Source: Verrucomicrobiota bacterium (GTDB taxonomy: Bacteria > Verrucomicrobiota > Verrucomicrobiia > Limisphaerales > Palsa-1400). Taken from it: 64,000 nucleotides of DNA. A program made the translations under genes and the position numbers. A model generated the notes under the pieces. It was not told the DNA's origin, did no database searches, and saw only the letters and a list, made by a program, of their open reading frames with translations. Shown here piece by piece: positions 12,226-44,700 of the stretch (within the stretch, counting starts at the first letter, position 1; every line of letters starts with the position of its first letter). The DNA lies in NCBI GenBank assembly GCA_049510745.1, contig JBEKYR010000007.1, positions 32,001 through 96,000 of the forward strand, written 5' to 3'.

Positions 12226-13809
12226 ATGTCACTCCAACCTGTTCTCATTGCCGGCGAATGGCGCGCGGCCAAAGCCAGCGGGACTTTCCGGGCTGAAAAC
12301 CCCGCGACCGGCGAAACGCTGCCGGAAGAATTTCCCGTCAGCGCGTGGGCCGATTGCGAGGCCGCGCTCGAGGCCGCCGTCGGAGCCGCCAACGAACTTG
12401 GGCAAACGCCGCCCGAAAAACTGGCGAACTTTCTGACGCGCTTCGCCGGGCGCATTGAGGCGCGCAAAACCGAACTGGTCGAAATCGCGCACGCTGAAAC
12501 CGGCCTGCCCAAATCGCCGCGTCTGGCGGAGGTGGAATTGCCGCGCACGACCGGGCAGTTGCGCCAGGCGGCCGCCGCCGCGCTGGACGGCTCGTGGGCT
12601 ATGGCGACGATTGACACGAAATTAAACATTCGCTCGATGCTCGCCCCGCTCGGGCCGGTGTGGGTTTTCGGCCCGAATAATTTTCCGTTCGCGTACAACA
12701 GCATCGCGGGCGGGGATTTTGCCGCCGCGATCGCGGCCGCCAATCCCGTGATTGCCAAAGCCAACACGTCGCATCCCGGCACGTCCCGGTTGCTGGCGGA
12801 GGAGGCCTTCGCCGCCGTGAGGGAAGCGGGGCTGCCGGGCGCGACGGTGCAATTGATCTATCGCACCAGCCACGCGGACGGCGAACGGCTGGCCGCCGAT
12901 GCGCGCACCGGGGCGCTGGCTTACACGGGCAGCCGCGCCGCCGGCCTCAAGCTCAAAGCCGCCGCGGACCGGGCGGGCAAGCCGATCTATCTGGAACTGT
13001 CCAGCGTCAATCCGGTGCTGATGCTGCCGGGCGCGTTGGCGGAACGGGGGGCGAAATTGGCGGAGGAATTCTGCGCCAGTTGCCTGCTGGCCACGGGGCA
13101 ATTCTGCACCAGCCCGGGCCTGGTGCTGTTGTTTGCCGGCGAAGCGGCGGAACAATTCATCGCCGCCGTGCGCCAAAAGCTGGAAGCGACGCCGCCCGCG
13201 CCGTTGCTCTCCGGCGGCGTGTTGCGGTCGCTGGAAGAAAGCGTGGGAACCCTGCGCGCGGCGGGCGCCGAACTGGTCACGGGCGGCAGGGCGTTGCCGC
13301 CGCCCGGCCATCGGTTTGCCAACACGCTGCTGCGCGTGAGCGGGGAGAAATTTTTGGCCGAACCGGAACAATTGCAGACGGAGGCGTTTGGCAACGCCTC
13401 GCTCATCGTCGTGCTGCGCGACGCCGGCCAGGCGCGCGCCGTCATCGAGCATCTCGAAGGCAATCTGACCGGCAGCATTTATTCCGACACGGCGGGCGCG
13501 GACGACGCGCTTTACGCCCAACTGGCGCCGCTGCTGCGGGCGCGGGTGGGGCGTTTATTGAACGACAAGATGCCGACAGGTGTGGCGGTCACGGCGGCGA
13601 TGAACCACGGCGGACCGTATCCGGCGACGGGACATCCGGGCTTTACCGCCGTCGGCATTCCCGCGTCATTGCGGCGTTTTGCGATGCTCCAGTGTTTTGA
13701 CAGTGTCCGCCCGCAGCGTCTGCCAGCCGCGCTGCGCAATCAGAATCCGACTGGAAAAATGTGGCGGCTTATGGATGGCCACTGGACGCAAGACAGCGCC
13801 GCCGGATAA
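12226..13809 (+). CDS. NAD(P)+ aldehyde dehydrogenase, alpha-ketoglutaric semialdehyde dehydrogenase-like
   Basis: ELPRTTGQLR, GPNNFPFA, AGGDFAAA, ELSSVNP, GQFCTSPG, PTGVAVTAAMNHGGPYPATG. Confidence 0.9.
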   Translation: MSLQPVLIAGEWRAAKASGTFRAENPATGETLPEEFPVSAWADCEAALEAAVGAANELGQTPPEKLANFLTRFAGRIEARKTELVEIAHAETGLPKSPRLAEVELPRTTGQLRQAAAAALDGSWAMATIDTKLNIRSMLAPLGPVWVFGPNNFPFAYNSIAGGDFAAAIAAANPVIAKANTSHPGTSRLLAEEAFAAVREAGLPGATVQLIYRTSHADGERLAADARTGALAYTGSRAAGLKLKAAADRAGKPIYLELSSVNPVLMLPGALAERGAKLAEEFCASCLLATGQFCTSPGLVLLFAGEAAEQFIAAVRQKLEATPPAPLLSGGVLRSLEESVGTLRAAGAELVTGGRALPPPGHRFANTLLRVSGEKFLAEPEQLQTEAFGNASLIVVLRDAGQARAVIEHLEGNLTGSIYSDTAGADDALYAQLAPLLRARVGRLLNDKMPTGVAVTAAMNHGGPYPATGHPGFTAVGIPASLRRFAMLQCFDSVRPQRLPAALRNQNPTGKMWRLMDGHWTQDSAAG

Positions 13810-13840
13810 AGAGTTTTCCTCAAACCCAAGCCAAAAACAC

Positions 13841-15529
13841 ATGATGCGTCATCTCCAAGCCGCCCGCTTGTTCGCCGCGCTTTTGCCGGCGTCAATCGCC
13901 ATTGCCGAGCCGGCCACCAACGCTTCGTTTCCCGTCGCCATCACGGTGGACGCGGCCAAGCCGGTGGGAGAACTGACGCCGATCTGGCGCTTCTTCGGCG
14001 CGGACGAACCGAACTACGCCTACATGAAGGACGGCAAGAAGCTTTTGTCTGAACTCGGCCAGCTCGGCGGGGCGCAGGTTTATTTTCGCGCGCACCATCT
14101 GCTGACCAGCGGCGACGGCTGGGCGGCGTTGAAATGGGGTTCGACCAGCGCCTACAAGGAGGATGCGAACGGCAAAGCGATTTACGACTGGACGATCAAC
14201 GACCGGATTTTCGACGCGTATCTCGAACACGGCCTCAAACCTTATGTGCAGATCGGCTTCATGCCGGAGGCGCTGACGACGCATCCGCAGAATTATCCGC
14301 ACCATCCGCCGGCCAACCAGCGCGCGCCCGCCGACGCGGGACAGTCGTATCCGCCGAGAGATTACGCGAAGTGGGGCGAGCTTGCGCATCAATGGGCCAG
14401 GCATTGCGTGGAGAAATACGGGCGGGCGGAAGTGGAGAAATGGTATTGGGAAGTCTGGAACGAGCCGAACATCAGTTACTGGCACGGGTCGCACGCGGAG
14501 TATTTCAAGCTTTACGATTACGCGGTGGACGGCGTGCGGCGGGCGCTGGCGAGCGCGCGCGTCGGCGGGCCGGAAACAGCGGGCGGGCCGGGCGGGAGGT
14601 TTTTGCGCGAATTTCTGGAACATTGCGCGTCGGGCACGAATTACGTCAGCGGCAAAACCGGCTCGCCCCTGGACTTTATCTCATTCCACGCCAAAGGCGC
14701 GCCGGTGTTCACCAACGGCCACGTCCGCATGGGCATGGCGAACCAGTTCAAGAATATCGACAGCGCCTTTGCCGTGATCGCGTCTTTTCCTGAATTCAAA
14801 AACCTGCCCATCATCATCGGCGAATCCGATCCGGAAGGATGCGCGGCGTGCCGCGAGCCGCACGACGCCTATCGCAACGGCACGATGTATTCCAGTTACA
14901 CGGCGGCGAGTTTTCCGCGCGCCTATGAACTGGCGGCGGAACGCGGGATGAATCTCCAGGGGGCGCTGACCTGGGCGTTTGAATTTGAAGACCAATTGCC
15001 GTTCGCCGGCTTCCGTCAACTGGCCAGCGCGGGGATGGATTTGCCGGTGCTGAATGTGTTCCGGATGTTCGCCAAAATGAGCGGCGAGCGCCTGGCCGCG
15101 GTCAGCAGCGCGGGACTGGAGGCGCAAACGATTCTCAAATCCGGCGTGCGCGGCCCTCCCGACGTGGCCGCGCTGGCGAGCCTGGACAAAGGCAAACTGG
15201 CCGTGCTGGCCTGGCATTATCACGACGACGATGTGGCCGGCCCGGAGGCGAGGGTGGACCTGGCGCTGAACAACCTGCCGTTCGCCAACGGCGAGGCGAA
15301 GATGACGCACTACCGGATTGACGCCGACCACAGCAATTCCTACCAGGCGTGGCTGCGGATGGGTTCGCCGCAGCCGCTCTCGGACAAGCAATTTTCCGAA
15401 CTGGAAAAGGCCGGGCAGCTTGCCCTGCTTGGCCCGCCGGAAAACATCCGCGTGGAAAACGGCAGGGCCGGCGTGAAATTCAACCTGCCGCGCCAGGCGG
15501 TGACCCTGCTGGTGGTGGAGTGGAATTAA
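13841..15529 (+). CDS. GH39 beta-xylosidase-like glycoside hydrolase, secreted
   Basis: Signal peptide; WRFFGADEPNY, WEVWNEP (acid/base), IIIGESDPEGCAAC. Confidence 0.9.
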   Translation: MMRHLQAARLFAALLPASIAIAEPATNASFPVAITVDAAKPVGELTPIWRFFGADEPNYAYMKDGKKLLSELGQLGGAQVYFRAHHLLTSGDGWAALKWGSTSAYKEDANGKAIYDWTINDRIFDAYLEHGLKPYVQIGFMPEALTTHPQNYPHHPPANQRAPADAGQSYPPRDYAKWGELAHQWARHCVEKYGRAEVEKWYWEVWNEPNISYWHGSHAEYFKLYDYAVDGVRRALASARVGGPETAGGPGGRFLREFLEHCASGTNYVSGKTGSPLDFISFHAKGAPVFTNGHVRMGMANQFKNIDSAFAVIASFPEFKNLPIIIGESDPEGCAACREPHDAYRNGTMYSSYTAASFPRAYELAAERGMNLQGALTWAFEFEDQLPFAGFRQLASAGMDLPVLNVFRMFAKMSGERLAAVSSAGLEAQTILKSGVRGPPDVAALASLDKGKLAVLAWHYHDDDVAGPEARVDLALNNLPFANGEAKMTHYRIDADHSNSYQAWLRMGSPQPLSDKQFSELEKAGQLALLGPPENIRVENGRAGVKFNLPRQAVTLLVVEWN

Positions 15530-15542
15530 CCCGCGGTCCGGT

Positions 15543-15833
15543 TTAAAGTTTTTGCAGGACGGCTTCCGGCGCGAAACCGTGAAGTTTAATCACCTTGTGC
15601 CGCGATTTATGGCCGCGAACCAGTTCGACGCGATGGCGGGCGCAATCGAGTTTTTCGGCGAGCAACTCAATCAACGCTTCGTTGGCGGCGGCATCCACCG
15701 GCGGGGCGGTGACCTTGATTTTCAGCTCGTCGCCAGCCAGCCCGACGATTTGATTGGACGAGGCGCGCGGTTGGAGTTTCACGGACAGGAGCGTGCCGTC
15801 CGGTTGGGCGCGGAGGAAAATCGGAGTCGCCAT
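15543..15833 (-). CDS. DUF167 (YggU-like) protein
   Basis: VKLQPRASSN..LKIKVTAPPVDAAANEAL..GHKSRHK. Confidence 0.9.
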   Translation of the reverse strand: MATPIFLRAQPDGTLLSVKLQPRASSNQIVGLAGDELKIKVTAPPVDAAANEALIELLAEKLDCARHRVELVRGHKSRHKVIKLHGFAPEAVLQKL

Positions 15834-15918
15834 GGCCGCGCATAGTAAGCGGCGGCAGGCCATTTGTCTCTGGAATTCCGAATTTGCAGGCAGATGGGAA
15901 ACAGGGCACCTTGGGGGG

Positions 15919-18009
15919 ATGAAACACAACTCGACCGGGAAAGCGTGGCTCCTTGCCGGGAGTCTTCTGGCTTTGCCGGGTTTCCTCAACCTGGGGGGGA
16001 CGGCGCGGGCGCAGACTGTATTTATGGTTGACGCGTTCAATCCATCGGGCGTGGGCGGCAATAACTACGCCAGCGGCCAGATCACCAATGTCTGGGGGAA
16101 TTGGTTCGGGAACGCGTTTCAATCATTGGCTTGGGATTCCGCCAGCGACGCCAACAATAACGCCGCTTCGGGATCGATGAAGATCACGGCCAACTTCAAC
16201 GGCGCCAGCAATCAGTTCGAGGTTTATGACTTTAACGGCATCTACCCGCCGGTGAACGGGGTGCAATACACGAATTTTCAATGCGATGTCCGTTTCGATC
16301 CCAGTTCCGCCACCGTGACGGCGGGCGGCAAGCTCATCTTTGGCCACCTGGAATTCGGCACGCCGAACGGCTACGGCCAGGATTACTTTGGCGGAGTGGA
16401 CGTTCCGGCCACGAACACAAACTGGGTGCATGTCAGCCTGCCGCTCAGCGCGGCGTCGGACCCGAATCTGACGAACATCTACAACGTTCTCATTCACATC
16501 TACGGGCCTTATTACAGTCCCGGGTTGAGCGGCGCTTCGATCCTCTGGGTGGACAACATCAAGTTTGTCGGCGCCACGCCGGTGACGACAAATTGCGTCG
16601 TGGACTGGAACGACGTGCATCAAAGGATAGATGGTTTTGGCGCTTCCTCGGCTTGGGATGGCAGTTGGACGAGCGCGCAAGCGGACCTGTTTTTTTCCAC
16701 CAATGCCGGGATCGGCCTTTCCTTGTTGCGCACACGCATCGCCCCTGGCGGCACGACGGTGGAAAACAGCATCATGCAGATGGCCCAAGCCCGCGGGGCC
16801 AGGGTCTGGAGCACGCCGTGGAGTCCGCAGGCGTCGTTCAAAAGCAATACAAATGTCGATGGCGGAGAATTTCTTTCGGCCAGCAACCAGGCTTACGCCA
16901 GCCAACTGGCCGGTTACGTGGCCAACATGAAGAACACTTACGGCGTCACCCTCTACGCCCTCTCCATCCAGAACGAACCCGGGATTGCGACCAGTTACGA
17001 ATCCTGCGTGTGGAACGCGCAGCAGATTCATGATTTTGTCCCTTACCTTTACGCCGCGTTGGCGGCGAGCAACGTGGCTTCGACAAAGATCCTGCTGGCG
17101 GAAGACCAGAGCTGGGAGACCAGTCTTTACCTCACCGCCATGAGTGATCCTTCGGTCGCGACGAACGTCGGCATTATCGCCTGCCACAATTATGACGGCA
17201 GTCCGCCCGGCGGGAATCCGGCGGCGCTGCCCCGGTCTGCCAATCCCAACGCGGCGCTCTGGGAGACGGAAGTTTCCACGTTCGACGCCTTTGACGGAAG
17301 CATGAGCAACGCCCTGTATTGGGCCGGCCGGATTCACCTGTTCCTGACGGCCGCGGAGGTCAACGCTTTTCATTATTGGTGGCTCATTCCCTTCAACCCC
17401 GATAACGAAGGATTGACCGACCCATCCGGCAATCCGGCCAAGCGCATGTATGCGCTGGGCAATTACAGCCGGTTTGTCCGGCCGGGCTATTACCGGATCG
17501 GAGTGTCCAACAACGCGTTCACCTCGATCAGCGCCTACAAGGACACCAACTCCGGCAGCTTTGCCATCGTCGCCATTAATTCGAGCTTCGGCGCCGTCAC
17601 GCAGATTTTTAATCTGGCCAACTTCACGGCCAGTTCTGTCACCCCATCGGTTACCTCCGGCACACTTTCGCTTTCCAACCAGGCTGCCGTGGCCGTTTCC
17701 AACTCAACTTTCAGCTACGCGCTGCCCGCTCTGAGCGTGGTGACCTTCATCGGGCAGGCTTACGTGGCGCCGTCCAGCATCACGATCTCGCGCGCTGTTC
17801 TCAACGGGAGCGCTTTTGTTCTCAGTTGGAATTCGGTCGCGGGCGCAAGCTACAGCGTGCTCAGAACCAATGTCCTGGCCGGACCCGCCACGCGCTGGCC
17901 CGCCATTGTCACCGGCTATCCGGCGGGAGGCGCCGCGGCCGGTTCGCTCTCCTACACGGATGTGACAGTGAGGGTGGCCCCGAGTTTTTATCGGGTGAGC
18001 AGTCCCTGA
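15919..18009 (+). CDS. GH30 glucuronoxylanase-like hydrolase with N-terminal beta-sandwich and C-terminal FYR domain
   Basis: Signal peptide; QRIDGFGAS, STPWSP, SIQNEP, LWETEVS, GNYSRFVRPGYYR. Confidence 0.88.
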   Translation: MKHNSTGKAWLLAGSLLALPGFLNLGGTARAQTVFMVDAFNPSGVGGNNYASGQITNVWGNWFGNAFQSLAWDSASDANNNAASGSMKITANFNGASNQFEVYDFNGIYPPVNGVQYTNFQCDVRFDPSSATVTAGGKLIFGHLEFGTPNGYGQDYFGGVDVPATNTNWVHVSLPLSAASDPNLTNIYNVLIHIYGPYYSPGLSGASILWVDNIKFVGATPVTTNCVVDWNDVHQRIDGFGASSAWDGSWTSAQADLFFSTNAGIGLSLLRTRIAPGGTTVENSIMQMAQARGARVWSTPWSPQASFKSNTNVDGGEFLSASNQAYASQLAGYVANMKNTYGVTLYALSIQNEPGIATSYESCVWNAQQIHDFVPYLYAALAASNVASTKILLAEDQSWETSLYLTAMSDPSVATNVGIIACHNYDGSPPGGNPAALPRSANPNAALWETEVSTFDAFDGSMSNALYWAGRIHLFLTAAEVNAFHYWWLIPFNPDNEGLTDPSGNPAKRMYALGNYSRFVRPGYYRIGVSNNAFTSISAYKDTNSGSFAIVAINSSFGAVTQIFNLANFTASSVTPSVTSGTLSLSNQAAVAVSNSTFSYALPALSVVTFIGQAYVAPSSITISRAVLNGSAFVLSWNSVAGASYSVLRTNVLAGPATRWPAIVTGYPAGGAAAGSLSYTDVTVRVAPSFYRVSSP

Positions 18010-18051: not shown

Positions 18052-18111
18052 TGGCGGGCTTGCGGAAAGAAATCCGCATGTTTTTGGCGGGTTTGAAGCT
18101 GGAATTCCGCA
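18052..18111 (+). promoter_or_regulatory. Tandem putative ECF promoters TGGCGGG-N16-CGCA
   Basis: TGGCGGG 18052-18058/CGCA 18075-18078 and TGGCGGG 18085-18091/CGCA 18108-18111; same motif recurs at 21868. Confidence 0.6.
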
Positions 18112-18315
18112 CATACAAGGAGAAGTCACAGTGTATATGAGCGCAAAGCGACACCAATGCCGTTGCGGGGGTATCGACTCGTTGTCGCCGGGCTATTTAT
18201 GGAGCAAGACCTCGTTTCCCAAACGGCTGTGGCGCCGGATGGACAATGGCGGGGAAAGACCGGGGTGATGCAAAATCGGAAAACCTCTCAACTAAAACCC
18301 ATCAAATATCAAGAT

Positions 18316-21162
18316 ATGAAAAGAGACACGAAAAAAATCCTCAACGTCAAACTAACAGCGGCGGCTGCCGTCACGATCTTGTTGGCGGCGATGCCTTCCA
18401 CAACCCGGGCACAGGTTAACACCAATCCGGTGCCAAACCTGGCCATCAGTTGGTCCTTGGATTCTTATGGATTCGACAACGCTGTTGGTGGAAGTGGCGT
18501 ACCGGTCCCCAATACTGCGGCGGGCCTTGCTCTGGCGACCAATTGGAACGACACATGGAGTGAGAATTTCACTCACGTGAGCGGGGTTCCCCCCGTGACA
18601 GTAAATAACTTGTTTGACATAACGGGGGCCGCGACCAGCGTGAGTCTAACCTACGCTGCCTGGGGCTCGTGGTATATTGTGAACGCACACGTTGGACCGG
18701 ATGCGGATGGCTCCTACAACAGGGAGATGCTCAACGGCTTTTTGAACGCAGGCCCGGCTGCGTGGGGCCCTAACATCACTAATTCATCCCTCATCTTCAG
18801 CGGCATTCCCTATACCAATTACGACGTTGTGGTCTATATTTCTGATGACACAAGCGGCCGGAAGTTCCGAATGACGGACGGGGCCATAAATTATTATGGC
18901 AGCACAGTGGCAGCAGCCGAAATCAGCGGGGCCAACGCTTTGTTTTTACCTACGACTCAAACCAGCAACACCCGGTTTCCCAGCGCAGACTTCGCCTTCT
19001 TCCCCGGAGAAACAAACAGCGCCCCCTCTTTCAATTGCTATCCATTATCCGGTAATGACCAGTGGCTCGGCATCTCGTCGATTCAGATCATCCAGGCCTC
19101 CAACGTCTATGTGCTCTTTGGCCCAAGTCCGGTCACTCAGATAGTTCCGGTCGGCCAGCCAGCCAGTTTCAGTGTCATGGCAGGCGGTTTGACCCCTCAA
19201 TATCAGTGGCAACATGCCGGCACAAACATCCCCAATGCCACCAGCGCCACCTACTCCATCGTTGCGGCGGCGCTGGGACAGGACGGAAGCTATGATGTCA
19301 TTGTCTCCAACAGTTTCAGTGCCGTGACCAGCGCGGTGGCCACGCTGACCTTCTATACGCCGAAGACTGACACGTGGGACGGCGTTGGCTCCGCTTGGGA
19401 CACCAGTTCAACCAACTGGACCGTCAACAATGGCGTTTCAAAGACGAATTACACGGAAACAGACAATGTGGTTTTTGGCCCGCTCGGCGCCGCCCAGCCG
19501 GCCGTTTCCCTGGCCAGCACCTTCACGCCGTCTTCCATCACGGTTTCCAACGCCGCTTACACACTTGCTTCCGGCGGGCTTGCCGGCACGGGGTCTCTGC
19601 ATGTGATGAACAATGCCACGTTGATTCTGGACACGGGTGACACCAGCACCGGGCCGACGTTGATTGACAGCGGCAGCACGCTCCAACTCGACAACAACGA
19701 CGCCGCCGGCGCGCTGGGTTCCGGGCCGCTGACCAACAACGGCGCATTGGTCTTCAACAGCTCCGGCAGTTATGCCTACGGCTTTCCGATCTATGGAACC
19801 GGCAACATCACAAATCTTGGGTCCGCCAACGAAATCACCTTGGGTGCGGGTGTCAGCGCCGATTATCTTGTCCAGGCGGGCGCCGGCCAACTGCTTCTCC
19901 AAGGCAATAACAACCTGACGGGCGGGCTGGTGGTTTCCGCCGGCACGGTTTATGCGCGCGTCAACACCAGTCTGGGACAGGGCACGGTGGTGCTCAACGG
20001 GGGAATGCTTCAGCTCTATTTTGCCAATGACTTCACCGGTTCGGCCATGACGCTGGCAGGCGGTGCGTTGCAAGGCGGCCTCAACGGCAACAACAGCTAC
20101 GACGGCACGGTTTCACTGGCGGTGGATTCAGACATTGATGTTGGCGCGGGCGATACCTTCACGTTGAACAGTGCCGCCGGACTCAATGGCGCCGGCTACA
20201 ACTTCAGTATAAATGCAAGTGGGGGTGGCACGTTGATTCTGCCGGGAACCGACAATACCTGGGCCAGCGTCACCATCAACGCCGGAACGCTCCAGATTGG
20301 CAATGGCGGCAGTGGGAGCCTGGGCGCCGGCACCATTACGGACAGCGGCGCTTTGACCTTCGATGTTGCCGGAAATCTGGTCGTGACCAATCCCATCACC
20401 GGCGGGGGCGCCATCAACCAGAACGGCGCCGGCACGGTCACGTTGACGGCGGACAATAACAGCGCCGGATTCGGCGGCCCCATCAACGTCAACAGCGGGA
20501 CGCTTCTGATCAACGGGACCGGCGGGACCGGAGGCGTAAGCGTGAACGGCGGCGCCCTTGGCGGCACCGGCGCAATTGAAAGCACGGTGGTGACGTCCGC
20601 AGGCTCGACGTTGTTCGCCGGCGCCCCGGCTTCGGTGGGCACACTCGCCATTGTTGGCGGCGATCTGGACATCGGCGGCAACGTCCTGGTGAAGCTGCAC
20701 AAATCCCTGGCCCAGTCCAACGACGTGGTGACGGTGTCCGGCGCGTTGAACAACACCGGCACCGGCATCGTGAATGTCGAAAACCTGGGTCCGGCGCTGG
20801 CGCCGGGAGACAAGTTCACGATCTTCAGCAAAGCCGTTGGCGGCAATGCACTGACGGTGGCTGGCAATGGCGTGGTTTGGAACAACAATCTGGCTGCGGA
20901 CGGCTCCATTTCAGTGCAGTCCTTGGGCACCGTCAGCCATCCGACCATCCAAAGTGTTTCCTATGGTGTCACCAACGTTGTCTTCAGCGGCGCCACTGGT
21001 TATGCCTACGGCCTCTACCATGTTTTGTCCTCCACCAATCTGGCGCTGGGCAACTGGACGCTGCAGGCCGTTGGCAACTTTGACGCCAGCGGGAATTTTT
21101 CCGTGACCAACAGCATCTCCGGGGCTGCGCCGGAGACATTCTATAAGCTGCAACTGCCGTGA
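18316..21162 (+). CDS. Large secreted surface protein: N-terminal globular domain, Ig domain, autotransporter-associated beta-strand repeats, C-terminal FYK domain
   Basis: Signal peptide (..TTRA|Q); YQWQHAGTNIP..DGSYDVIVSN Ig; repeats such as GAGTVTLTADN, TINAGTLQIGNGG; no beta-barrel. Confidence 0.85.
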   Translation: MKRDTKKILNVKLTAAAAVTILLAAMPSTTRAQVNTNPVPNLAISWSLDSYGFDNAVGGSGVPVPNTAAGLALATNWNDTWSENFTHVSGVPPVTVNNLFDITGAATSVSLTYAAWGSWYIVNAHVGPDADGSYNREMLNGFLNAGPAAWGPNITNSSLIFSGIPYTNYDVVVYISDDTSGRKFRMTDGAINYYGSTVAAAEISGANALFLPTTQTSNTRFPSADFAFFPGETNSAPSFNCYPLSGNDQWLGISSIQIIQASNVYVLFGPSPVTQIVPVGQPASFSVMAGGLTPQYQWQHAGTNIPNATSATYSIVAAALGQDGSYDVIVSNSFSAVTSAVATLTFYTPKTDTWDGVGSAWDTSSTNWTVNNGVSKTNYTETDNVVFGPLGAAQPAVSLASTFTPSSITVSNAAYTLASGGLAGTGSLHVMNNATLILDTGDTSTGPTLIDSGSTLQLDNNDAAGALGSGPLTNNGALVFNSSGSYAYGFPIYGTGNITNLGSANEITLGAGVSADYLVQAGAGQLLLQGNNNLTGGLVVSAGTVYARVNTSLGQGTVVLNGGMLQLYFANDFTGSAMTLAGGALQGGLNGNNSYDGTVSLAVDSDIDVGAGDTFTLNSAAGLNGAGYNFSINASGGGTLILPGTDNTWASVTINAGTLQIGNGGSGSLGAGTITDSGALTFDVAGNLVVTNPITGGGAINQNGAGTVTLTADNNSAGFGGPINVNSGTLLINGTGGTGGVSVNGGALGGTGAIESTVVTSAGSTLFAGAPASVGTLAIVGGDLDIGGNVLVKLHKSLAQSNDVVTVSGALNNTGTGIVNVENLGPALAPGDKFTIFSKAVGGNALTVAGNGVVWNNNLAADGSISVQSLGTVSHPTIQSVSYGVTNVVFSGATGYAYGLYHVLSSTNLALGNWTLQAVGNFDASGNFSVTNSISGAAPETFYKLQLP

Positions 21163-21196
21163 CGGGTCTGGCGGTTCTACAGTGACGGGTTCAGAC

Positions 21197-21228
21197 GACC
21201 GGAGCCTGAAACTCCGGTTGTTTTTTTT
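21197..21228 (+). terminator. Rho-independent terminator
   Basis: ACCGGAG-CCTGAAA-CTCCGGT stem followed by T8. Confidence 0.85.
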
Positions 21229-21289
21229 AAATCCAGAGCGAAATTGATGTCGTCATTTTTCAGGGGAACCGGTAGGGTGCGGCATCCAA

Positions 21290-21847
21290 ATGAGCGAGAT
21301 TACGTTGGTGCTGGAGGGGATTGGGCGGGGCGACAAGCAGGCTTCCGAAGACCTCCTGCCGCTGGTGTATGGAGAGCTGCGACGGCTGGCCGCCGCCAAA
21401 ATGGCCAGGGAGGCGGAGGGACAAACCATCCAGCCGACGGAACTGGTTCATGAGGCCTGGCTGCGCCTGGTTGGCGACGCGGCCCAAACCTGGCAAAACC
21501 GCAACCACTTCCTGGGCGCCGCCGCCGAGGCGATGCGCCGCATTTTGGTGGACCGCGCGCGGCGCAAATCCGCCGTCCGGCACGGCGGCGGCCAGTTCCG
21601 GCTCGACATCGAAGGGCTGGACCTGGCCGCGGCCGGGGCCGACGACAAAATCCTGCTGGTGGACGAGGCCTTGGAACAACTGCGCGAGGAGGACCCGGAA
21701 AAAGCGCGCATTGTCACGTTGAAATTCTTTGGCGGCTTGACCAACCAGGAAATCGCGGCCCATCTCAACCTGGGCGAGCGCACGGTCGAGCGCCAGTGGT
21801 CTTTCGCCAAGGCCTGGCTGCTGCGGGCCATCCGCGCGCGAAGCTGA
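21290..21847 (+). CDS. ECF sigma factor, TIGR02999-like (STK-associated)
   Basis: LLPLVYGELRRLA, TIQPTELVHEAWLRL, AAEAMRRILVDRAR, TVERQWSFAKAWL. Confidence 0.93.
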   Translation: MSEITLVLEGIGRGDKQASEDLLPLVYGELRRLAAAKMAREAEGQTIQPTELVHEAWLRLVGDAAQTWQNRNHFLGAAAEAMRRILVDRARRKSAVRHGGGQFRLDIEGLDLAAAGADDKILLVDEALEQLREEDPEKARIVTLKFFGGLTNQEIAAHLNLGERTVERQWSFAKAWLLRAIRARS

Positions 21848-21867
21848 CACGACAAAGCGGCGTTCCG

Positions 21868-21894
21868 TGACGGGTTAAGCGGGCTATTTTCGCA
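21868..21894 (+). promoter_or_regulatory. Putative ECF promoter TGACGGG-N16-CGCA upstream of the kinase
   Basis: Ends 21 bp before the kinase ATG; matches two copies upstream of the 18316 gene. Confidence 0.55.
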
Positions 21895-21915
21895 TATAAT
21901 ACATGACGTAGCGCG

Positions 21916-24900
21916 ATGAACGGGAACCTGCAACGAGAAGAAGCCCTCTTCCATGAAGCCATTCAGTTGGCCGATCCCCTTCGGCGCAAACTATTCCTCG
22001 ACCGCGCTTGCGCGGGCGACCCGATTCTGCGCGCGGGGGTGGAGGAATTGCTGGCGGCGCATGCCTTGGGAGAAGAGTTTTTTGACGGGGAAGGCTCGGC
22101 GTTCAGTTGGTCCGGAGGGCGCGTTGGCTCTTCCGCGCCCGCCAACAGAGATTCTTCCGTGAAATCTCCGGTCGAGGAACAGCCCGGAACGAAAATCGGC
22201 TGTTACAAGCTGCTGGAAAAAATCGGCGAGGGCGGGTGCGGCGTCGTCTATATGGTCGAGCAGACCGAACCGGTCCGCCGCCGCGTGGCGCTGAAAATCA
22301 TCAAGCTGGGCATGGACACCAAGAACGTCATCGCCCGCTTTGAGGCCGAGCGGCAAGCCTTGGCGCTGATGGAGCATCCCAACATAGCGCGGGTCCTGGA
22401 CGCCGGAGCCACGGAAACCGGACGGCCGTATTTCGTGATGGAACTGGTGCATGGGGTCAAGCTCACGGAGTATTGCGACCAGCACCATTTGGACACCCGG
22501 CAGCGCCTGGACCTGTTCGTGCAGATTTGCCATGCCCTTCAGCACGCTCATCAGAAGGGCGTCATTCACCGCGATATCAAGCCGTCGAACATATTGGTGA
22601 CGCTGCACGACGGCGTGCCGGTTCCGAAGGTGATTGATTTCGGCATCGCCAAGGCGACGGCGGAGCAACTGACCGACAAGACCTTGTTCACCGGCTACGG
22701 CAACTTCATCGGCACCCCGGCCTACATGAGCCCGGAACAGGCCGAGATGAGCGGCCTGGACGTGGACACGCGGAGCGACATTTACAGTCTGGGCGTGTTG
22801 CTCTACGAATTGCTGACCAGCAAAACGCCCTTTGACGGAAAAAAACTGTTGGAGAGCGGCCTTTTCGAAATGCGGCGCACGCTTTGCGAAACGGATCCGC
22901 AGCGGCCCTCGACCATGCTCGCGGCTTTGGACCATTCCGAATTAACGATCACGGCCGAGCGGCGCCACGCCGATCCGCCCAGATTGATTTCGCAACTGCG
23001 CGGAGATTTGGACTGGATCGTGATGAAAGCCCTGGAGAAAGATCGCCGTCGCCGCTATGAAACCGCCAACGGCCTGGCGCTGGATGTCCAGCGCTATCTG
23101 AACAACGAACCCATCCTGGCCCGCCCGCCCAGCCGTTCGTACCGCTTTCAAAAACTGGTTTACCGCAACAAAGTGGTCTTCGCCGCCGGCGCTGCGGTGG
23201 CGCTGGCCCTGATCCTCGGTTTTGGAACCTCCACCTGGCTCTTTTTCCGCGAAAGAGACGCCGAGCAGAAACAGTCGCGCCTGCGCCAGGAAGCCGAGCA
23301 AACCAGCGCCCGGGAAATGGAACTGCGGCGGCAGGCAGAACTCCGCGAGAAGATTACGCAGGCGTCTTTTGCCCTCAGCCAGGATCGGATGGAGGACGCG
23401 GACCAGGCAATCATCCAGGTTTCCAATGTGCCGCCTTCGCTGGAAAGCGCGGCCGTGTTTCGACGGCTGGGCGAGTGGCATGCGCTTGCGGGACGTTGGA
23501 AACAAGCTGCTGAACGATTTGCCACCTTGCTCAGCGTCAATCGGTTTGACGGCTGGGATGCGGCGGCGTCGGACGCGCTCAAGTGCGCGGCGGCCCTGGC
23601 GGAATTGGGCAACCTGGATGCGTACGACCGTTTTCGTGAAGCCCTGGTGGACCGCTTTGCCGCCAGTTCCAATCAGACGGCATCCGACCGGATGGTGAAG
23701 GCGGCCCTGATTCTGCCGGCCACCGATCGCTTTCTTCAGACGTTGCAGCCGCTGGTTGATACCATCACCTCGAAGATACCGCCCGCCATTCGCGCCCAGC
23801 CTCCCGCCGAGGTGTTGCATCCCGCCGCCGCCGAATCCAGCTCCAGCGCGCGGCCTGCCCTGGTCGATGTCTCCAGTTTTGACGGGCGCGCCATCGGAGT
23901 GGACTTCGGGGAAGCGGTTGACTTCGCCAGCGCCACCAACCCTGCCAACTATCTTGTTCCAGGAACGACCGTGACCAACGTCACGCTAGGCGCGGACAGC
24001 CTATCGGTGACCCTCTGGCTGGCATCACCGCTCGACGGACAATTCACCGTGCGGGTTGACAATGTCAAGGATGCGTCCGGAGACCGGGTTTTGCCCGCGG
24101 CAACAGCGACGAACTCCGTGCCGAACTTGAATTGGTGGGTCAGCGGAAACGCCAGCAACCAACCCAGCTCGGTGGCTTACAGCGGCAATACCGCCACCAT
24201 TGTGGCCGGTGGATCGGACGTGTGGCTTCATGGCGACAACTTCGTCTTCCAGTATCGATTGGAGACCAACGACTTTGATTGCCGCCTGCGCGTGCAATCG
24301 GTCGCGGACACCGACGGCACAGGCTTTGCGCGCACCGGCTTAATGGTGCGAGATTCATTGACGGACATCAACGGGCACATGATGATGGTCCAGAAAAACG
24401 CGGGGCCGAACGCCGGGAACAATAACATCGATTCCTTTGAAGTGACCCTGCGGTTTATTGCCGACCATCCCGAAACCACCTTCAGCGCGCCTCCCAATCC
24501 CCTGCCGGCGGCTTACGGTTCGAACTCGTGGCTCCGTCTGCGCCGATCCGGGACAAGATTTGCCGCCTATGTGTCCAGCAACAGCGTGGACTGGGCGCAA
24601 CTGATCGAAAGCGACGGCGCATCCCATGGCGACAAGACGTTTACGAACAACGTCCTTTTTTTCGGCATCGCTACCAGCGCCCACAGCACGGACGCCACTA
24701 CCAAAGCTGTCGTCAGCGGGCTGGGCGCGGTCCCTGCCACGCCGGTCAAAATCATCGCCCAGCCGGCGGCTTCTGTGGCATGGAATCAAGGCGCTCCCGG
24801 CGCCCTCAAACTGGTCGCCACGGGCGATTCGGTGTCCTGCCAATGGCGCCTCAACGGCGTGGACATTCCCGGGGCCACCGACGCCGCCTATCTTGTGCCC

Positions 24901-26286
24901 GCCGCACGGCTGTCGGACGCCGGAGTTTATTCAACGCTTGTTTACAACAACGTCAACGCGCTCGTCAGCTCCCCTATCAGCGTCACCGTTTCCAAAGACA
25001 CCACCCCCCCCTTCATCACCGACATCGTCAGTTACGATGGCCTCAGCGTGAAGGTGGAATACAACAAGGTGATGGATTCCGCCACGGCGGCCAACCCCGC
25101 CAACTATCGCGTCAATGGCTCCCCGGTCGCCGCGGCCGATTTCGCGCCCGGCGGCCGATCGGTCGTTCTGCGGCTTGGCCAGCCCATCGATGGCCAGGTG
25201 GAGGCCACGGTCAGCAACGTAAAAGACTTTTCCTTGAACACCATCGTTCCAGAGACCAAAGCCGTTGGCTCCGTGTTGCCTCTGCAACTCTTGGCCCTCG
25301 GAGACGCGTCCCTGCAGCCGTATTCAGTTTCTTACAGCGGAGACAGGGTTTCCATCGTCGCGGGCGGATCGGATGTCAGCGGGGGCGGCGACAATCTGGT
25401 TTATCAATATCTGGTGGTGACCAACGACTTCGACTTTCGTTTGCGCGTCCAATCCGTTTCGGGCGGCGGCGGTATGTTTGCCCGATCCGGCTTGATGGCT
25501 CGCGATTCGTTTCGCGACACGTCCAGCCACCAAGTCATGGTCGCCGTCAACGCGGGAAACACGTTTCAAACCATTGCCCGCACCATGACCGGATCCATTC
25601 AAACCCAAAGTCAGCCGCCCAACCCGCTGCCGTCGTCCTTTGGCTCGAATTCCTGGGTCCGGCTGCAGCGGGTCGGAACCATTTTCCGGACCTACTACGG
25701 CGACAACGGGGTGGACTGGACGTCGCTGTATCAGTTCGACAGCGCGGCGGATGCCGACGGACCGTTTGCCAATCCCCTCTATTTGGGCATCGCCACTTCC
25801 TCGTGGAGCGCCAGAAAGACCGCCACAGCCGTGGTGAGCGATTTTGGGGTGACTCAAACCACCCCCGTCAGCGCCACGATCTCGCTGGCGTTGATTGACT
25901 ACCGCCGGAAGAACTATGCCCAAGCCATGGAATGGTGCCGTCGCTGTCTGGCTGATCCTGACTATCAGGCGGCCCGCATCGCCACCGCGCGGGCCATCCT
26001 GGCGATGTGCTGCTTCCGGCTCAATCAGATGGCGGAGGCGCGTTCCGAATTGGCCGAGAGCCGCGAGATCATCCGGGGCAGATTCGCCGCCGGTCTTAAC
26101 GCCGGCAACGCCACCTACGGTTATTGGTTCGATTGGGTTTCAGCCCGCATCCTTCTGCGCGAAGCGGCGGCGCTCATCGAAGAGCGGGAGAAGGGTCTCA
26201 CCCAGAATTCCCGTGGTTCGCAAAGTGAGATCACCCCGGGGGGAGACCTGCCCGTTGCCACTGCGATTCAAAAAAGGAGGATTTAA
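21916..26286 (+). CDS. Transmembrane Ser/Thr protein kinase with helical-repeat region interrupted by duplicated Ig/lectin-like modules
   Basis: IGEGGCGVVY, VALK, HRDIKPSN, DFG, GTPAYMSPEQ; TM VVFAAGAAVALALILGFGTSTWLFF; two homologous SATNPANY...GGSDV...DN.V.QY..TNDFD.RLRVQSV...PNPLP...GSNSW.RL.R modules. Confidence 0.93.
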   Translation: MNGNLQREEALFHEAIQLADPLRRKLFLDRACAGDPILRAGVEELLAAHALGEEFFDGEGSAFSWSGGRVGSSAPANRDSSVKSPVEEQPGTKIGCYKLLEKIGEGGCGVVYMVEQTEPVRRRVALKIIKLGMDTKNVIARFEAERQALALMEHPNIARVLDAGATETGRPYFVMELVHGVKLTEYCDQHHLDTRQRLDLFVQICHALQHAHQKGVIHRDIKPSNILVTLHDGVPVPKVIDFGIAKATAEQLTDKTLFTGYGNFIGTPAYMSPEQAEMSGLDVDTRSDIYSLGVLLYELLTSKTPFDGKKLLESGLFEMRRTLCETDPQRPSTMLAALDHSELTITAERRHADPPRLISQLRGDLDWIVMKALEKDRRRRYETANGLALDVQRYLNNEPILARPPSRSYRFQKLVYRNKVVFAAGAAVALALILGFGTSTWLFFRERDAEQKQSRLRQEAEQTSAREMELRRQAELREKITQASFALSQDRMEDADQAIIQVSNVPPSLESAAVFRRLGEWHALAGRWKQAAERFATLLSVNRFDGWDAAASDALKCAAALAELGNLDAYDRFREALVDRFAASSNQTASDRMVKAALILPATDRFLQTLQPLVDTITSKIPPAIRAQPPAEVLHPAAAESSSSARPALVDVSSFDGRAIGVDFGEAVDFASATNPANYLVPGTTVTNVTLGADSLSVTLWLASPLDGQFTVRVDNVKDASGDRVLPAATATNSVPNLNWWVSGNASNQPSSVAYSGNTATIVAGGSDVWLHGDNFVFQYRLETNDFDCRLRVQSVADTDGTGFARTGLMVRDSLTDINGHMMMVQKNAGPNAGNNNIDSFEVTLRFIADHPETTFSAPPNPLPAAYGSNSWLRLRRSGTRFAAYVSSNSVDWAQLIESDGASHGDKTFTNNVLFFGIATSAHSTDATTKAVVSGLGAVPATPVKIIAQPAASVAWNQGAPGALKLVATGDSVSCQWRLNGVDIPGATDAAYLVPAARLSDAGVYSTLVYNNVNALVSSPISVTVSKDTTPPFITDIVSYDGLSVKVEYNKVMDSATAANPANYRVNGSPVAAADFAPGGRSVVLRLGQPIDGQVEATVSNVKDFSLNTIVPETKAVGSVLPLQLLALGDASLQPYSVSYSGDRVSIVAGGSDVSGGGDNLVYQYLVVTNDFDFRLRVQSVSGGGGMFARSGLMARDSFRDTSSHQVMVAVNAGNTFQTIARTMTGSIQTQSQPPNPLPSSFGSNSWVRLQRVGTIFRTYYGDNGVDWTSLYQFDSAADADGPFANPLYLGIATSSWSARKTATAVVSDFGVTQTTPVSATISLALIDYRRKNYAQAMEWCRRCLADPDYQAARIATARAILAMCCFRLNQMAEARSELAESREIIRGRFAAGLNAGNATYGYWFDWVSARILLREAAALIEEREKGLTQNSRGSQSEITPGGDLPVATAIQKRRI

Positions 26287-40896: not shown

Positions 40897-40997
40897 GCTT
40901 GGCAGGGGAAGTTTTGAAGATTGGCCCGGCGATGTCAACGCGGGGCGGCGCCGAAAATGATTGCCAACTTCCCGCGCCGGGGGCATTGGAGAACCCG

Positions 40998-41636
40998 ATG
41001 TGCGGCCGATATTCGCTGACGAAAAAGGAACTGCGGCTGGTTTCGCAACTGCCGCCGGCAGAGGTGCAGCTTCATCTTCAGCCGCGCTTCAACATCGCGC
41101 CGACGCAAAACGCGCCGGTGATTATCATGGAAGACGGGCAAATGGCACCGCGGGAAATGCGCTGGGGCCTGCAACCCGCCTGGTCGCCCGGACCCATCAT
41201 CAACGCCAGGGCCGAAACGTTGACCGCCAAACCAGCCTTTCGCCGCGCCTTTTTGCATGGCCGCTGTTTGGTCCCCGCGGATGGCTTTTACGAGTGGCGC
41301 CGGCCGGACAAAGCCCCGTTTCGCTTTGTCGCGCCGGAGGGGGAGGCGTTTTGTTTCGCGGGGATTTGGGATCAGGCCCTTGTCCAGAAGGCGGCGGGGC
41401 CTGTGAGGGCGTATGCCATTCTGACGACGGGTGCGAGCGCGGAAGTGCTGCCGATTCACGCGCGCATGCCGCTGATCCTGGCGCCGGCCGACTACGGCGG
41501 GTGGCTGGCCGACGGGGCGCGGGCGGAAGAGATTCTGAGGACGCCCTGCGCGGCCCGGTTGCGCCGCTACCCCGTCAGCACGCTGGTCAACAGCCCGTTG
41601 AACGAGGACCCACGATGCGTGGAACAGCAGAATTGA
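40998..41636 (+). CDS. SOS response-associated peptidase (SRAP/YedK/HMCES family)
   Basis: MCGRY start, RFNIAPTQ, INARAET, RCLVPADGFYEW, IHARMP. Confidence 0.95.
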   Translation: MCGRYSLTKKELRLVSQLPPAEVQLHLQPRFNIAPTQNAPVIIMEDGQMAPREMRWGLQPAWSPGPIINARAETLTAKPAFRRAFLHGRCLVPADGFYEWRRPDKAPFRFVAPEGEAFCFAGIWDQALVQKAAGPVRAYAILTTGASAEVLPIHARMPLILAPADYGGWLADGARAEEILRTPCAARLRRYPVSTLVNSPLNEDPRCVEQQN

Positions 41637-41662
41637 TTTTCCCGTTTTTTGCCCGTTGTCCT

Positions 41663-41690
41663 TTGACAGCCGCAACGGCTTGGTTATACT
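41663..41690 (+). promoter_or_regulatory. Near-consensus sigma70 promoter of the repeat-protein gene
   Basis: TTGACA-16 bp-TATACT ending 20 bp upstream of ATG 41711. Confidence 0.65.
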
Positions 41691-41710
41691 CCCTCCGACA
41701 AGAACCGCCC

Positions 41711-44700
41711 ATGAAACCGCTGATACGCCGCTGCATCGGGTTGCTCGCCCTCCAACTCGCCTCCACCCTTCACGCCCAGCCCATTCTGATCCAGCCGCAG
41801 AACCAGACCATCGGCGGCACCAGCGTCAGCAATCTGCGCATCCTCAAGCAATCGGCCGACGGCACGGAAACCATCTTGATGGTCGATTTTATATACGACG
41901 GCGTCAACGGGCCTTCCGCGCGGGTCTTGCCCGTTATCACCGACAAAAAGGTGCCCAACGTCTCCAGTTGGTTCGGGGCGGACCCCGTCACCATTGGCAG
42001 CGGCCACGGCACCATCTCCTTGCGCGTCAAGTTTTTCAATGATGATCCCGGCGTGCCGCCGCAGGTCACCACCGATCACGTCCGCATCATGATTATGTCG
42101 GACACCGGCAACGCTGTTATCAGCCAGGGCATTTTCTCCAGGACCATCAAGTGGGGCAGTGCCACTGCTCCGGTTGCCACCGCGCCGCCGCCGCCCGCCG
42201 CTACCGCGCCTCCGCCCCAACCCCAAGACCAAGCCAGCCTCCGCGCCCTGGCGGAAGCCCAGCGCATCGCGGAAGAAAAGGCCAGAGCCGAAGCCAAAGC
42301 CCAGCAGGAAGCCAGGCTCAAAGCCGAAGCCGAAGAAAAAGCGCGCCAGGAAGCCGAAGCCAAGCGCCTGGCGGAGGAAAAAGCCAGGGCCGAAGTCGAA
42401 GCCAAAGCCCGCGAGGAGGCCAGGTTAAAAGCGGAAGCAGAAGAAAAGGCCCGGCAAGAAGCCGAAGCCAAACGATTGGCCGACGAAAAAGCCAGGGCCG
42501 AAGCCGAAGTCAAGGCCCGCGAAGAAGCCCGGCTCAAGGCCGAAGCCGAAGAACGGGCGCGCCAGGAAGCCGAAGCCAAGCGGCTGGCCGAAGAAAGAGC
42601 CAAAGCCGAAGCCGAAGCCAAAGCCCGCGAGGAAGCCCGACTCAAGGCTGAAGCCGAAGAACGGGCGCGCCAGGAAGCCGAAGCCCGGCGATTAGCCGAG
42701 GAAAAGACCAAGGCTGAAGCCGAAGCCAAAGCCCGCGAAGAAGCCAGACTAAAAGCGGAGGCCGAAGAAAAAGCGCGCCAGGAAGCCGAAGCCAAGCGGC
42801 TGGCCGAAGAAAAGGCCAAGGCCGAAGCCGAAGCCAAAGCCCAGGAGGAGGCCAGGCTCAAAGCCGAAGCCGAAGAGAAGGCCCGCCAGGAAGCCGAAGC
42901 CAGGCGGCTGGCCGAAGAAAAGGCCAAAGCTGAAGCTGAAGCCAAAGCCCGCGAGGAAGCCCGGCTCAAGGCCGAAGCCGAAGAAAGAGCCAAGGCCGAA
43001 GCCGCAGCCAAACGACTGGCCGAGGAAAAAGCCAAGGCCGAAGCCGAAGCCAAGGCCCGCGAGGAAGCCAGATTGAAAGCCGAAGCCGAAGAAAGAGCGC
43101 GCCAGGAAGCCGAAGCCAAGCGGCTAGCCGAAGAAAAAGCCAAAGCCGAAGCCGCTGCCAAAGCCCGCGAGGAAGCTAGATTAAAAGCCGAAGCCGAAGA
43201 AAAAGCGCGTCAGGAAGCCGAAGCCAAGCGGCTGGCCGAAGAAAAAGCCAAGGCCGAAGCCGAAGCCAAAGCCCGGGAAGAAGCCAGATTAAAAGCGGAA
43301 GCCGAAGAAAAGGCCCGGCAAGAAGCCGAAGCCAAGCGGTTGGCCGACGAGAAAGCCAAAGCCGAAGCCGAAGCCAAAGCTCGCGAAGAAGCCAGACTAA
43401 AAGCGGAAGCGGAAGAAAAAGCCCGCCAGGAAGCCGAAGCCAAGCGGCTGGCCGAAGAAAAGGCCAAGGCCGAGGCCGAAGCCAAAGCTCGCGAGGAGGC
43501 CAGGCTCAAAGCCGAGGCGGAAGAAAAAGCCCGCCATGACGCCGAAGCCAAGCGGCTGGCCGAAGAAAAAGCCAAGGCCGAGGCCGAAGCCAAAGCGTTG
43601 GTTGAAGCCAAAGCTCGTGAAGAAGCCAAAGCCCGCGAGGAAGCCAGGCTCAAAGCCGAAGCGGAAGAAAAGGCCCGCCATGAAGCCGAAGCCAAGCGGC
43701 TGGCCGAGGAAAAAGCCAAGGCCGAAGCAGAAGCCAAAGCCCGCGAAGAAGCCAGATTGAAAGCCGAAGCCGAAGAAAAGGCCCGGCAGGAAGCCGAAGC
43801 CAAGCGGCTGGCTGAAGAAAAAGCCAAAGCCGAAGCCGAAGCCAAGGCCCGCGAAGAAGCCAGATTGAAAGCCGAAGCCGAAGAAAAAGCGCGCCAAGAA
43901 GCCGAAGCCAAGCGGCTGGCCGAAGAAAAAGCCAAGGCCGAAGCCGAAGCCAAGGCCCGCGAAGAAGCCCGGCTCAAGGCCGAAGCCGAAGAGAAGGCGC
44001 GCCAGGAAGCCGAAGCCAGGCGGCTGGCCGAAGAAAAGGCCAAGGCCGAAGCCGAAGCCAAAGCTCGCGAAGAAGCCCGGCTCAAGGCTGAAGCCGAAGA
44101 AAGAGCCAAAGCCGAAGCTGCAGCCAAACGATTGGCCGAAGAAAAGGCCAAGGCCGAAGCCGAAGCCAAGGCCCGCGAAGAAGCCAGATTGAAAGCCGAA
44201 GCCGAAGAAAAGGCCAGGCAGGCCGCAGAAGCCAAGCGGCTGGCCGAGGAAAAAGCCAAAGCCGAAGCCGAGGCTAAAGCCCAGGAGGAAGCCAGATTAA
44301 AAGCGGAAGCCGAAGAAAAAGCGCGCCAGGAAGCCGAAGCCAAACGGCTGGCCGAAGAAAAAGCCAAAGCCGAGGCCGAAGCCAAGGCCCGCGAGGAAGC
44401 CCGACTCAAGGCCGAAGCCGAAGAGAAGGCCCGCCAGGAAGCCGAAGCCAAGCGGCTGGCCGAGGAAAAAGCCAAGGCCGAAGCCGAAGCCAAGGCCCGC
44501 GAAGAAGCCCGATTGAAGGCGGAAGCCGAAGAAAAGGCGCGCCACGAGGCGGAGGCCAAACGGCTGGCCGAAGAAAAGGCCAAGGCCGAAGCCGAGGCCA
44601 AACGGTTGGCCGAGGAAAAAGCCAAAGCCGAAGCCGAGGCCAAAGCCCGCGAAGAAGCCCGCCTCAAGGCCGAAGCCGAGGAGAAGGCGCGCCAGGAAGC

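Follow-up and report, generated by a model that had tools for sequence, protein, structure and literature searches.

A putative ECF43 sigma factor–kinase circuit with a lectin-like sensor insert and a clade-specific candidate promoter in a Verrucomicrobiota bacterium

We analysed a 64,000-nucleotide stretch of the genome of a Verrucomicrobiota bacterium (assembly GCA_049510745.1, contig JBEKYR010000007.1, positions 32,001 to 96,000 of the forward strand), below called the window, in which genes for an exported protein, a sigma factor of the extracytoplasmic function (ECF) type and a Hanks-type kinase follow one another on the same strand (Table 1). They are accompanied by three copies of the bipartite motif TG(G/A)CGGG-N16-CGCA, all intergenic and on the forward strand, as a preliminary description made from the letters of the window had claimed. 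The kinase gene starts 68 nt after the ECF stop codon, with no terminator-like hairpin listed between the two, and, in agreement with that description, no anti-sigma-like gene was called beside either. It is well supported that the locus encodes a known kind of circuit, that of the ECF43 group, of which the sensor variant is new, the promoter is readable and clade-specific, and the target operon has decayed.

Table 1. Features of the locus in window coordinates.
Feature	Position	Strand	Description
Predicted ECF43 promoter, copy 1	18052..18078	+	-35 TGGCGGG, N16, -10 CGCA; 15.1 bits on the general matrix; 20.2 bits, rank 3, on the 11-site matrix
Terminator-like hairpin, weak	18061-18078		overlapped by promoter copy 1
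Predicted ECF43 promoter, copy 2	18085..18111	+	14.8 bits on the general matrix; 23.4 bits, rank 2, on the 11-site matrix
Relic open reading frame, 43 codons	18137..18268	+	start and C-terminal end left of a prepilin-type (N-methylation) gene by an internal deletion
Exported 948-aa protein, predicted target	18316..21162	+	signal peptide; galactose-binding-like/malectin-like beta-sandwich (predicted); Ig domain; passenger-associated repeats
Intrinsic-terminator-like hairpin and T-run	21193..21223	+	between the surface-protein gene and the ECF gene
ECF43-type sigma factor, 185 aa	21290..21847	+	PF07638, TIGR02999; QPTE with T50 (codon 21437-21439); E167 (codon 21788-21790)
Predicted ECF43 promoter before the kinase gene	21868..21894	+	21 nt to the ATG; 17.5 bits (rank 2 of 2828) on the general matrix; 23.7 bits, rank 1, on the 11-site matrix
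Hanks-type kinase, 1456 aa	21916..26286	+	catalytic motifs intact; one transmembrane helix at about 418-444; TPR-like ectodomain 446-626 and 1318-1422
Cassette inside the TPR ectodomain	23848..25851	+	approximately residues 645-1312; order of domains S-layer-type Ig, DUF1349/ConA-like, Ig, S-layer-type Ig, DUF1349/ConA-like; predicted to bind the ligand

The sigma factor matched PF07638 (186 bits) and TIGR02999 (208 bits), both over cut-off, in place of the canonical sigma2 and sigma4 models; the PF07638 domain marks the ECF43 group (PMC7826278, accessible part of the supplement). Further features of this group were found, namely a kinase encoded at position +1, the absence of an anti-sigma gene, and a single transmembrane helix combined with extracytoplasmic TPRs. 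Being an ECF43–kinase circuit, a kind that occurs six times in this genome and at least once in 26 of the 41 genomes searched, it can no longer be called an undescribed signalling system, as had been proposed. The earlier observation that the acidic DAED-type motif of region sigma2.2 is replaced by QPTE (residues 48-51) was confirmed. T50 aligns with the acidic residue of the SigL sequence QAED, and T46 and T50 are invariant across 20 aligned ECFs. The linker contains acidic residues and, between residues 95 and 142, neither Ser nor Thr. A single-sequence PDB search with the ECF returned no match.

The analogy drawn earlier with EcfK/PknS and EcfP/PknT is correct, as indicated by the PF07638-type ECF, the Thr motif and the kinase's closest PDB match, PknS (9EED; E 5e-56). 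According to the accessible part of PMC13147305, EcfK/PknS of Xanthomonas citri, which controls a type VI secretion system directed against amoebae, likewise joins a PF07638-type sigma factor, in which Thr replaces the acidic motif of sigma2.2 (QATE, phosphorylated at T51), to a kinase with an N-terminal extension, one transmembrane helix and periplasmic TPRs. Unlike the factor studied here, in which residues 95-125 lack Ser and Thr, EcfK has a second phosphosite, T106, in its linker, and the same part of that paper describes PknS without a lectin-like insert and gives no promoter motif, unlike what we found for the kinase here. EcfP of Vibrio parahaemolyticus is similar as an intrinsically inactive sigma factor that is switched on by Thr phosphorylation and has no anti-sigma factor, but differs in its STTA motif, which has no acidic residue, in its response to polymyxin and in its unrelated set of targets (PMC8999054, PMC8103513 and PMC13147305, each in part).

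All catalytic motifs are present in the kinase, which has one hydrophobic stretch (residues 418-444); the TPR part appears in the model as helical-repeat halves, with Pfam TPR matches below cut-off. In sister kinases of about 740-760 residues, the N-terminal TPR half (TPR-N) is joined directly to the C-terminal one (TPR-C), whereas about 690 residues lie between them in the window kinase; two further kinases (loci L109 and L110) carry one 180-residue domain at the same junction. Between the halves, the AlphaFold model (predicted local distance difference test, pLDDT, 84; predicted template-modelling score 0.49) contains immunoglobulin-like (Ig), concanavalin A-like (ConA-like), Ig, Ig and ConA-like domains in this order. 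The first ConA-like domain superimposes on 3MEP with Z 20.2 and a root-mean-square deviation (rmsd) of 2.3 over 170 aligned residues, similarly on 3O12 (Z about 20), and on the C-terminal sandwiches of glycoside hydrolase (GH) family GH43 with Z 16-17.6. In its predicted structure, the insert thus has the ConA-like beta-sandwich fold of a carbohydrate-binding module (CBM). Within the length range searched, the 47 homologues of the second ConA domain comprised 32 kinases, five GH27/GH29 enzymes, nine other non-kinase proteins and the window's own fragment; orthologues 82-84% identical in this domain exist. This lectin-like insert in a TPR ectodomain is new relative to the known ECF43 pairs, and it had been overlooked in the preliminary description, as had the glycan-enzyme context and the decayed operon. 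Iyer et al. reportedly surveyed the ectodomains of ECF43 kinases in 2020, which could pre-empt the architecture of the insert.

Is the bipartite motif conserved among related loci? We gathered 74 ECF43 sequences from fetched loci, for 35 of which the downstream kinase start could be placed. Nine of these 35 ECF-to-kinase spacers are shorter than 35 nt, too short to contain the element. Raw 160-nt stretches proved unusable for motif search, as kinase coding sequence dominates them; we thus trimmed 23 spacers of at least 35 nt, all from other genomes, to intergenic DNA. De novo expectation maximisation on these recovered TG(A/G)C(C/G)G..TT-...-CGCAT with the same 7+16+4 geometry, assigned in 20 of the 23 (log-likelihood 171, against 95 and 99 for shuffled spacers). 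Among 468 held-out upstream regions, 31 reached at least 12 bits, compared with 5.5 when the spacer was shifted by 2-3 nt, 5 on the reverse strand and 20 when the spacer was off by one base. A match preceded the gene in 7 of 22 cases for kinases, in 8 of 53 for co-oriented secreted proteins of large size and in 0 of 43 for ECF genes, and 29 of the 31 were co-oriented with the ECF (background 316/468). In a third set, built from 58 new ECFs, 17 of 73 regions had a site, where 1.75 were expected from controls. A scan upstream of related ECF–kinase loci, which the preliminary description had suggested, thus recovers the element repeatedly: it is directional, bipartite, fixed in its spacer and located upstream of genes, as is the case for an ECF promoter. 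In one related locus (L107:6510-9484), the 5' part of the kinase gene is duplicated as a 113-aa fragment, which has its own near-identical copy of the motif.

The variants of the element suggest which protein reads it. We compared kinase and target sites in 52 loci that have a single ECF and a site: those within one locus agreed in 82% (-35) and 78% (-10) of the variable columns and in 32% of the spacer (20 pairs), against 41%, 54% and 30% between loci (1546 pairs). Similarity of the -35 box across loci tracked ECF identity (rho 0.28, reached in 0 of 300 permutations). The window ECF lies in a QPTE clade of six members with full support, in which the sites have the form TG(G/A)CGG. Its E167 aligns with the K of GTVKSR in SigL, the position of RpoE Arg171, where Arg selects C at -31 (bioRxiv 10.1101/2020.06.23.168245, accessible part). 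Across 51 discovery loci, an acidic residue at this position goes with G and a basic one with C at motif position 5 (22:2 versus 4:18), and the R-C loci are nested among the E-G loci in the tree. In divergent orthologous loci (L115-L117) the site faces the target operon, and locus L124 has one immediately 5' of the surface-protein orthologue. From these comparisons, the claim of a readable cognate promoter is upheld: TG(G/A)CGGG-N16-CGCA is very likely the promoter of this sigma factor.

The element differs from the published ECF43 promoter prediction for Proteobacteria, GTC (-35) and CAG (-10); this is not a defining criterion, promoters having not been used to define the groups, and the 2021 core set of ECF43 was proteobacterial only and was later widened to more than 900 members (PMC7826278, in part). 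It resembles the ECF41 and ECF42 promoters given there (TGTCACA...CGTC and TGTCGAT...CGTC) in its TG-led -35 and CG-led -10, but here the -10 reads CGCA(T) and the site precedes the kinase and target genes rather than that of the sigma factor, a position which would escape searches upstream of ECF genes and their operons. The regions covered by one large survey, upstream of ECF genes, their operons and divergent genes (bioRxiv 10.1101/2020.06.23.168245, in part), mostly lack the motif. The window ECF gene has no site upstream (at most 3.3 bits), and autoregulation of the ECF, for which none of the 43 ECF genes of relatives offered a site either, was rejected. A housekeeping -10 box before ECF genes was not significant (14/34, against a mean of 8.9 and a maximum of 16 in shuffles), so that basal ECF expression is an assumption.

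Within the window, 0.27 matches to the literal pattern TGRCGGG-N16-CGCA are expected by chance and none of 100 shuffles reached four, although this count is post hoc. A fourth literal match, at 40839, had been overlooked; we treat it as chance, its score on an independent matrix being 0.35 bits, whereas the three sites have 14.8-17.5. When scored with an 11-site matrix from six orthologous loci, none of them from this genome, the window sites took ranks 1-3 among the 2828 upstream regions of the genome, the next-best region reaching 17.9 bits. The surface protein and the kinase are thus the two best-scoring targets in the genome. This ranking fits the description of the circuit as self-contained; cross-talk is possible all the same, as two paralogues share the residue that would read -31 and have -35 boxes one base away. 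These paralogous ECF43–kinase loci (G000 C1:73386-84452 and C69:3158-15283) have their own variants, TGTCGGG...GGCGCAT (C1) and TGGCGGA...GCGCGT (C69), before LamG-type secreted genes; in C69, prepilin-like and fucosidase-type genes follow, while GH51 and XylR-like genes are found in relatives of C1. The gene of a secreted protein located at a distance from all ECF43 genes (G000 C4:87221-89524, reverse strand) has a strong general-matrix site of 17.1 bits and may be a remote target for one ECF43 paralogue out of the six.

What might the circuit respond to? We examined 22 loci with insert-bearing kinases (L114-L135), two of which (L128 and L131) repeat L109 and L110, which stayed out of the comparison set. 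Their usual order is ECF, site, kinase, site, a PEP-CTERM protein with the surface N-domain, a prepilin-like gene, the surface orthologue, a DUF1349-GH27 gene and a GH27 gene. Among the 18 insert-kinase loci of at least 8 kb, GH27 occurred in 13 and the surface N-domain in 11; the corresponding counts for the 47 other ECF43–kinase loci were two and zero. Intergenic sites that score 12 bits or more were found in 15 of the 22 loci, 32 in total (one being a training site) against 6.75 for shifted spacers. XylR-like genes are present in some ECF43 loci. GH27 enzymes act on alpha-galactoside or beta-L-arabinopyranoside substrates. Among these loci, L130:1-5497 holds two back-to-back ECF43–kinase pairs, and L134:6825-10900 a stand-alone ConA-domain ectodomain fragment beside an ECF–kinase pair. 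L118, L123, L124, L129, L131 and L135 are labelled non-Verrucomicrobia and have verrucomicrobial-looking gene content; these are likely mislabelled bins, and we did not take the labels as evidence of transfer.

Measured against this family, the sequence comparison points to the window copy as a reduced derivative of a larger glycan operon. No GH27 gene adjoins it. The surface protein most likely starts at 18316, as judged by its signal peptide and a 948-aa database entry, so that the tandem sites do precede the surface gene as claimed, but at about 205-240 nt from its ATG and with a gene relic in the gap. The end of the relic reading frame matches the C-terminus of the relatives' prepilin-like gene (14/24 identical, pairwise E 4e-7), and the top three of 76 prepilin-like tails all come from orthologous loci, where this gene precedes the surface gene; the distance from relic stop to surface ATG is 47 nt, versus 43-45 nt in relatives. 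An internal deletion of the prepilin-like gene would explain the long leader, an assembly artefact being the alternative. The N-domain of the surface protein is modelled as a galactose-binding-like/malectin-like sandwich (pLDDT 89) that matches 2O14 with Z 10.3, moderately over the usual background of 7-8 (rmsd 2.8, 133 aligned), and Foldseek gave weak CBM-type matches, one of them at E<=0.001. Of 112 homologues of this domain, six have it fused to GH27, and the same query did not detect it in 30 further genomes of the family; the module is thus patchy.

Some neighbouring features stand beside these results. Directly upstream (12226-18009, forward strand) lie genes for an aldehyde dehydrogenase, a GH39 protein and a secreted GH30-like (XynC-type) protein, the last without a motif site and with a catalytic part that is untagged in orthologous loci. 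Just 5' of the terminator after the surface gene (window 21160-21190, forward strand), two TGACGGGT half-sites at 21160 and 21184, 24 nt apart, equal the -35 box of the kinase site without a -10 box; they are possibly relics of promoters whose genes once stood between surface gene and ECF and have been lost; L114 has a GH27 gene at this place. Further downstream, an open reading frame of up to 1607 aa (40961-45784, forward strand) consists largely of near-perfect Ala/Glu/Lys/Arg-rich repeats (a long coiled coil) flanked by two globular ends and has no Pfam match.

Based on these comparisons, we propose that sigma factor and kinase would be present at a basal level and that an extracellular glycan is likely bound by the two lectin-like domains inserted in the kinase, as fold and neighbours suggest. 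The kinase would then autophosphorylate and pass phosphate to T50 of the sigma factor, which, by analogy with the characterised ECF43 pairs, would restore binding to RNA polymerase. The holoenzyme would act at the three sites and yield more of the exported glycan-binding-type protein and more kinase; the internal site would boost the kinase only, not the sigma factor. The positive feedback on the kinase gene suggested earlier holds in that such a site is common in relatives, but it is not universal, given the short spacers mentioned above. As a whole, an ECF43 sigma factor with a lectin-tipped kinase, a glycan input and the surface protein and kinase as output appears to us a reasonably probable explanation. 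Of its steps, which are not independent of one another, the phospho-switch at T50 is highly probable by analogy, like the promoter, while a glycan input through the insert would be rather probable. The kinase likely senses a plant-type sugar chain; that its ligand is a GH27-type substrate, which we infer from fold and neighbours, is the weakest step.

Several results weigh against this explanation. On the input side, a ConA fold does not by itself define a function, DUF1349 has no shown ligand, and 157 of the 301 genomes of the order encode large secreted proteins with similar modules. The EcfK mutant T51A is still functional (PMC13147305, in part), and T50 need thus not be the whole switch. 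Regarding the promoter, the genome-wide scan that the preliminary description had also suggested gave 19 matches to the literal pattern at N16 in the 5.6-Mb genome, versus 4-33 for N12-N20 and thus without excess at this spacer; significance therefore rests on the comparative evidence and not on the window count. The general matrix found 17 matches of at least 13 bits in the 2828 upstream regions, versus 8-25 in shifted or reversed controls, which argues for a small regulon. Seven of the 22 insert-kinase loci, including the complete locus L119, have no site of at least 12 bits, and covariation of the -10 box with ECF identity was weak (rho 0.08, 25/300 permutations). Reading of motif position 5 (-31) by the sigma4 residue is suggestive, the related loci not being independent, and the prospective counts (2:1 versus 0:6, p 0.08) were underpowered, with no residue assigned for 8 of 22 sites. 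Neither the eight GH27-like genes elsewhere in the genome (at most 3.5 bits on the 11-site matrix) nor the adjacent GH30 gene has a site.

Could the same circuit and promoter serve a cue other than a sugar? The insert would then be a structural spacer or a protein-binding module, and cell contact, envelope stress or the exported protein itself would be sensed through the TPRs, as in PknS and PknT. We consider this unlikely, although the characterised ECF43 kinases answer to amoebae and polymyxin (PMC13147305 and PMC8999054, in part), the window copy has no adjacent GH27 genes, and insert-free sister kinases also occur in glycan loci (GH51 in 4/47, GH29 in 1/47), where the insert is thus not needed: the insert is tightly linked to GH27 and the surface N-domain, its domain family is also appended to co-located GH27 enzymes, and the N-domain of the target has a CBM-like fold too. 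We find it quite improbable that the locus is a decaying remnant, with a true ECF43 promoter but no useful glycan response left or with sites read mainly by paralogous ECF43 factors. The relic prepilin-like gene, the PEP-CTERM and GH27 partners missing from the locus, the failure of this query to find the module in the other 30 family genomes and the near-identical -35 boxes of the C1 and C69 paralogues would fit such decay; yet none of the three genes is shortened and their motifs are intact, the three sites fit the clade-specific variant better than any other region of the genome, and the close orthologues of the second ConA domain exist.

Slightly more improbable still is that the element is no promoter of this sigma factor, but belongs to another regulator or sigma factor (sigma-54, XylR-like), forms an RNA structure or arose by chance. 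TGCG/CGCA is partly palindromic, a hairpin followed by a T-rich run is formed at site 1, XylR-like genes accompany some loci and the published ECF43 prediction differs (PMC7826278, in part); on the other hand, the element is strand-specific and spacer-specific, the fold of site 3 is not unusual (z 0.87), and the variants agree with the tree of the ECFs and with a residue known to read the base. The sigma-54 consensus consists of GG and GC dinucleotides in a -24/-12 register. We rejected a sigma-54 promoter, as this register was seen in only 3 of 85 sites. The ECF43 circuit with a glycan-responsive kinase and its own promoter is the reading that we retain.

An alternative sigma factor connected with both a carbohydrate-binding-type module outside the cell and genes of glycan degradation is also found in the clostridial sigma-I/RsgI pairs and in the ECF/anti-sigma pairs of Bacteroidetes polysaccharide utilisation loci, which act by anti-sigma release. 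In contrast, phosphorylation by a kinase is proposed here, and prepilin-like and PEP-CTERM genes are part of the operon. Our literature searches, which did not cover most subscription papers, found no ECF43 promoter of this form and no DUF1349 kinases.

In summary, no ligand of an ECF43 kinase was found named in the literature searched, and the present locus family offers a candidate input in the form of a soluble, lectin-like, GH27-linked insert, together with a readable output, a clade-specific promoter that singles out its targets across the whole genome. It also yields a one-residue prediction of specificity, namely that the change E167R would turn the base read at motif position 5 from G into C. 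If the explanation is true, glycan-degrading operons of the mostly uncultured Verrucomicrobia could be mapped from sequence alone, and phospho-switchable sigma factor–promoter pairs would be usable as parts. More tentatively, and with some doubt, we suggest that Verrucomicrobia may have wired lectin receptor kinases to sigma factors as switches of glycan loci, in which a lectin module shared with the enzymes would set the input sugar at a fixed point of the TPRs and single sigma4 residues would retune the -35 box and insulate paralogous circuits. If so, bacteria would have in these kinases their own counterpart of lectin receptor kinases, and the regulation of polysaccharide loci would extend beyond anti-sigma release and two-component systems.

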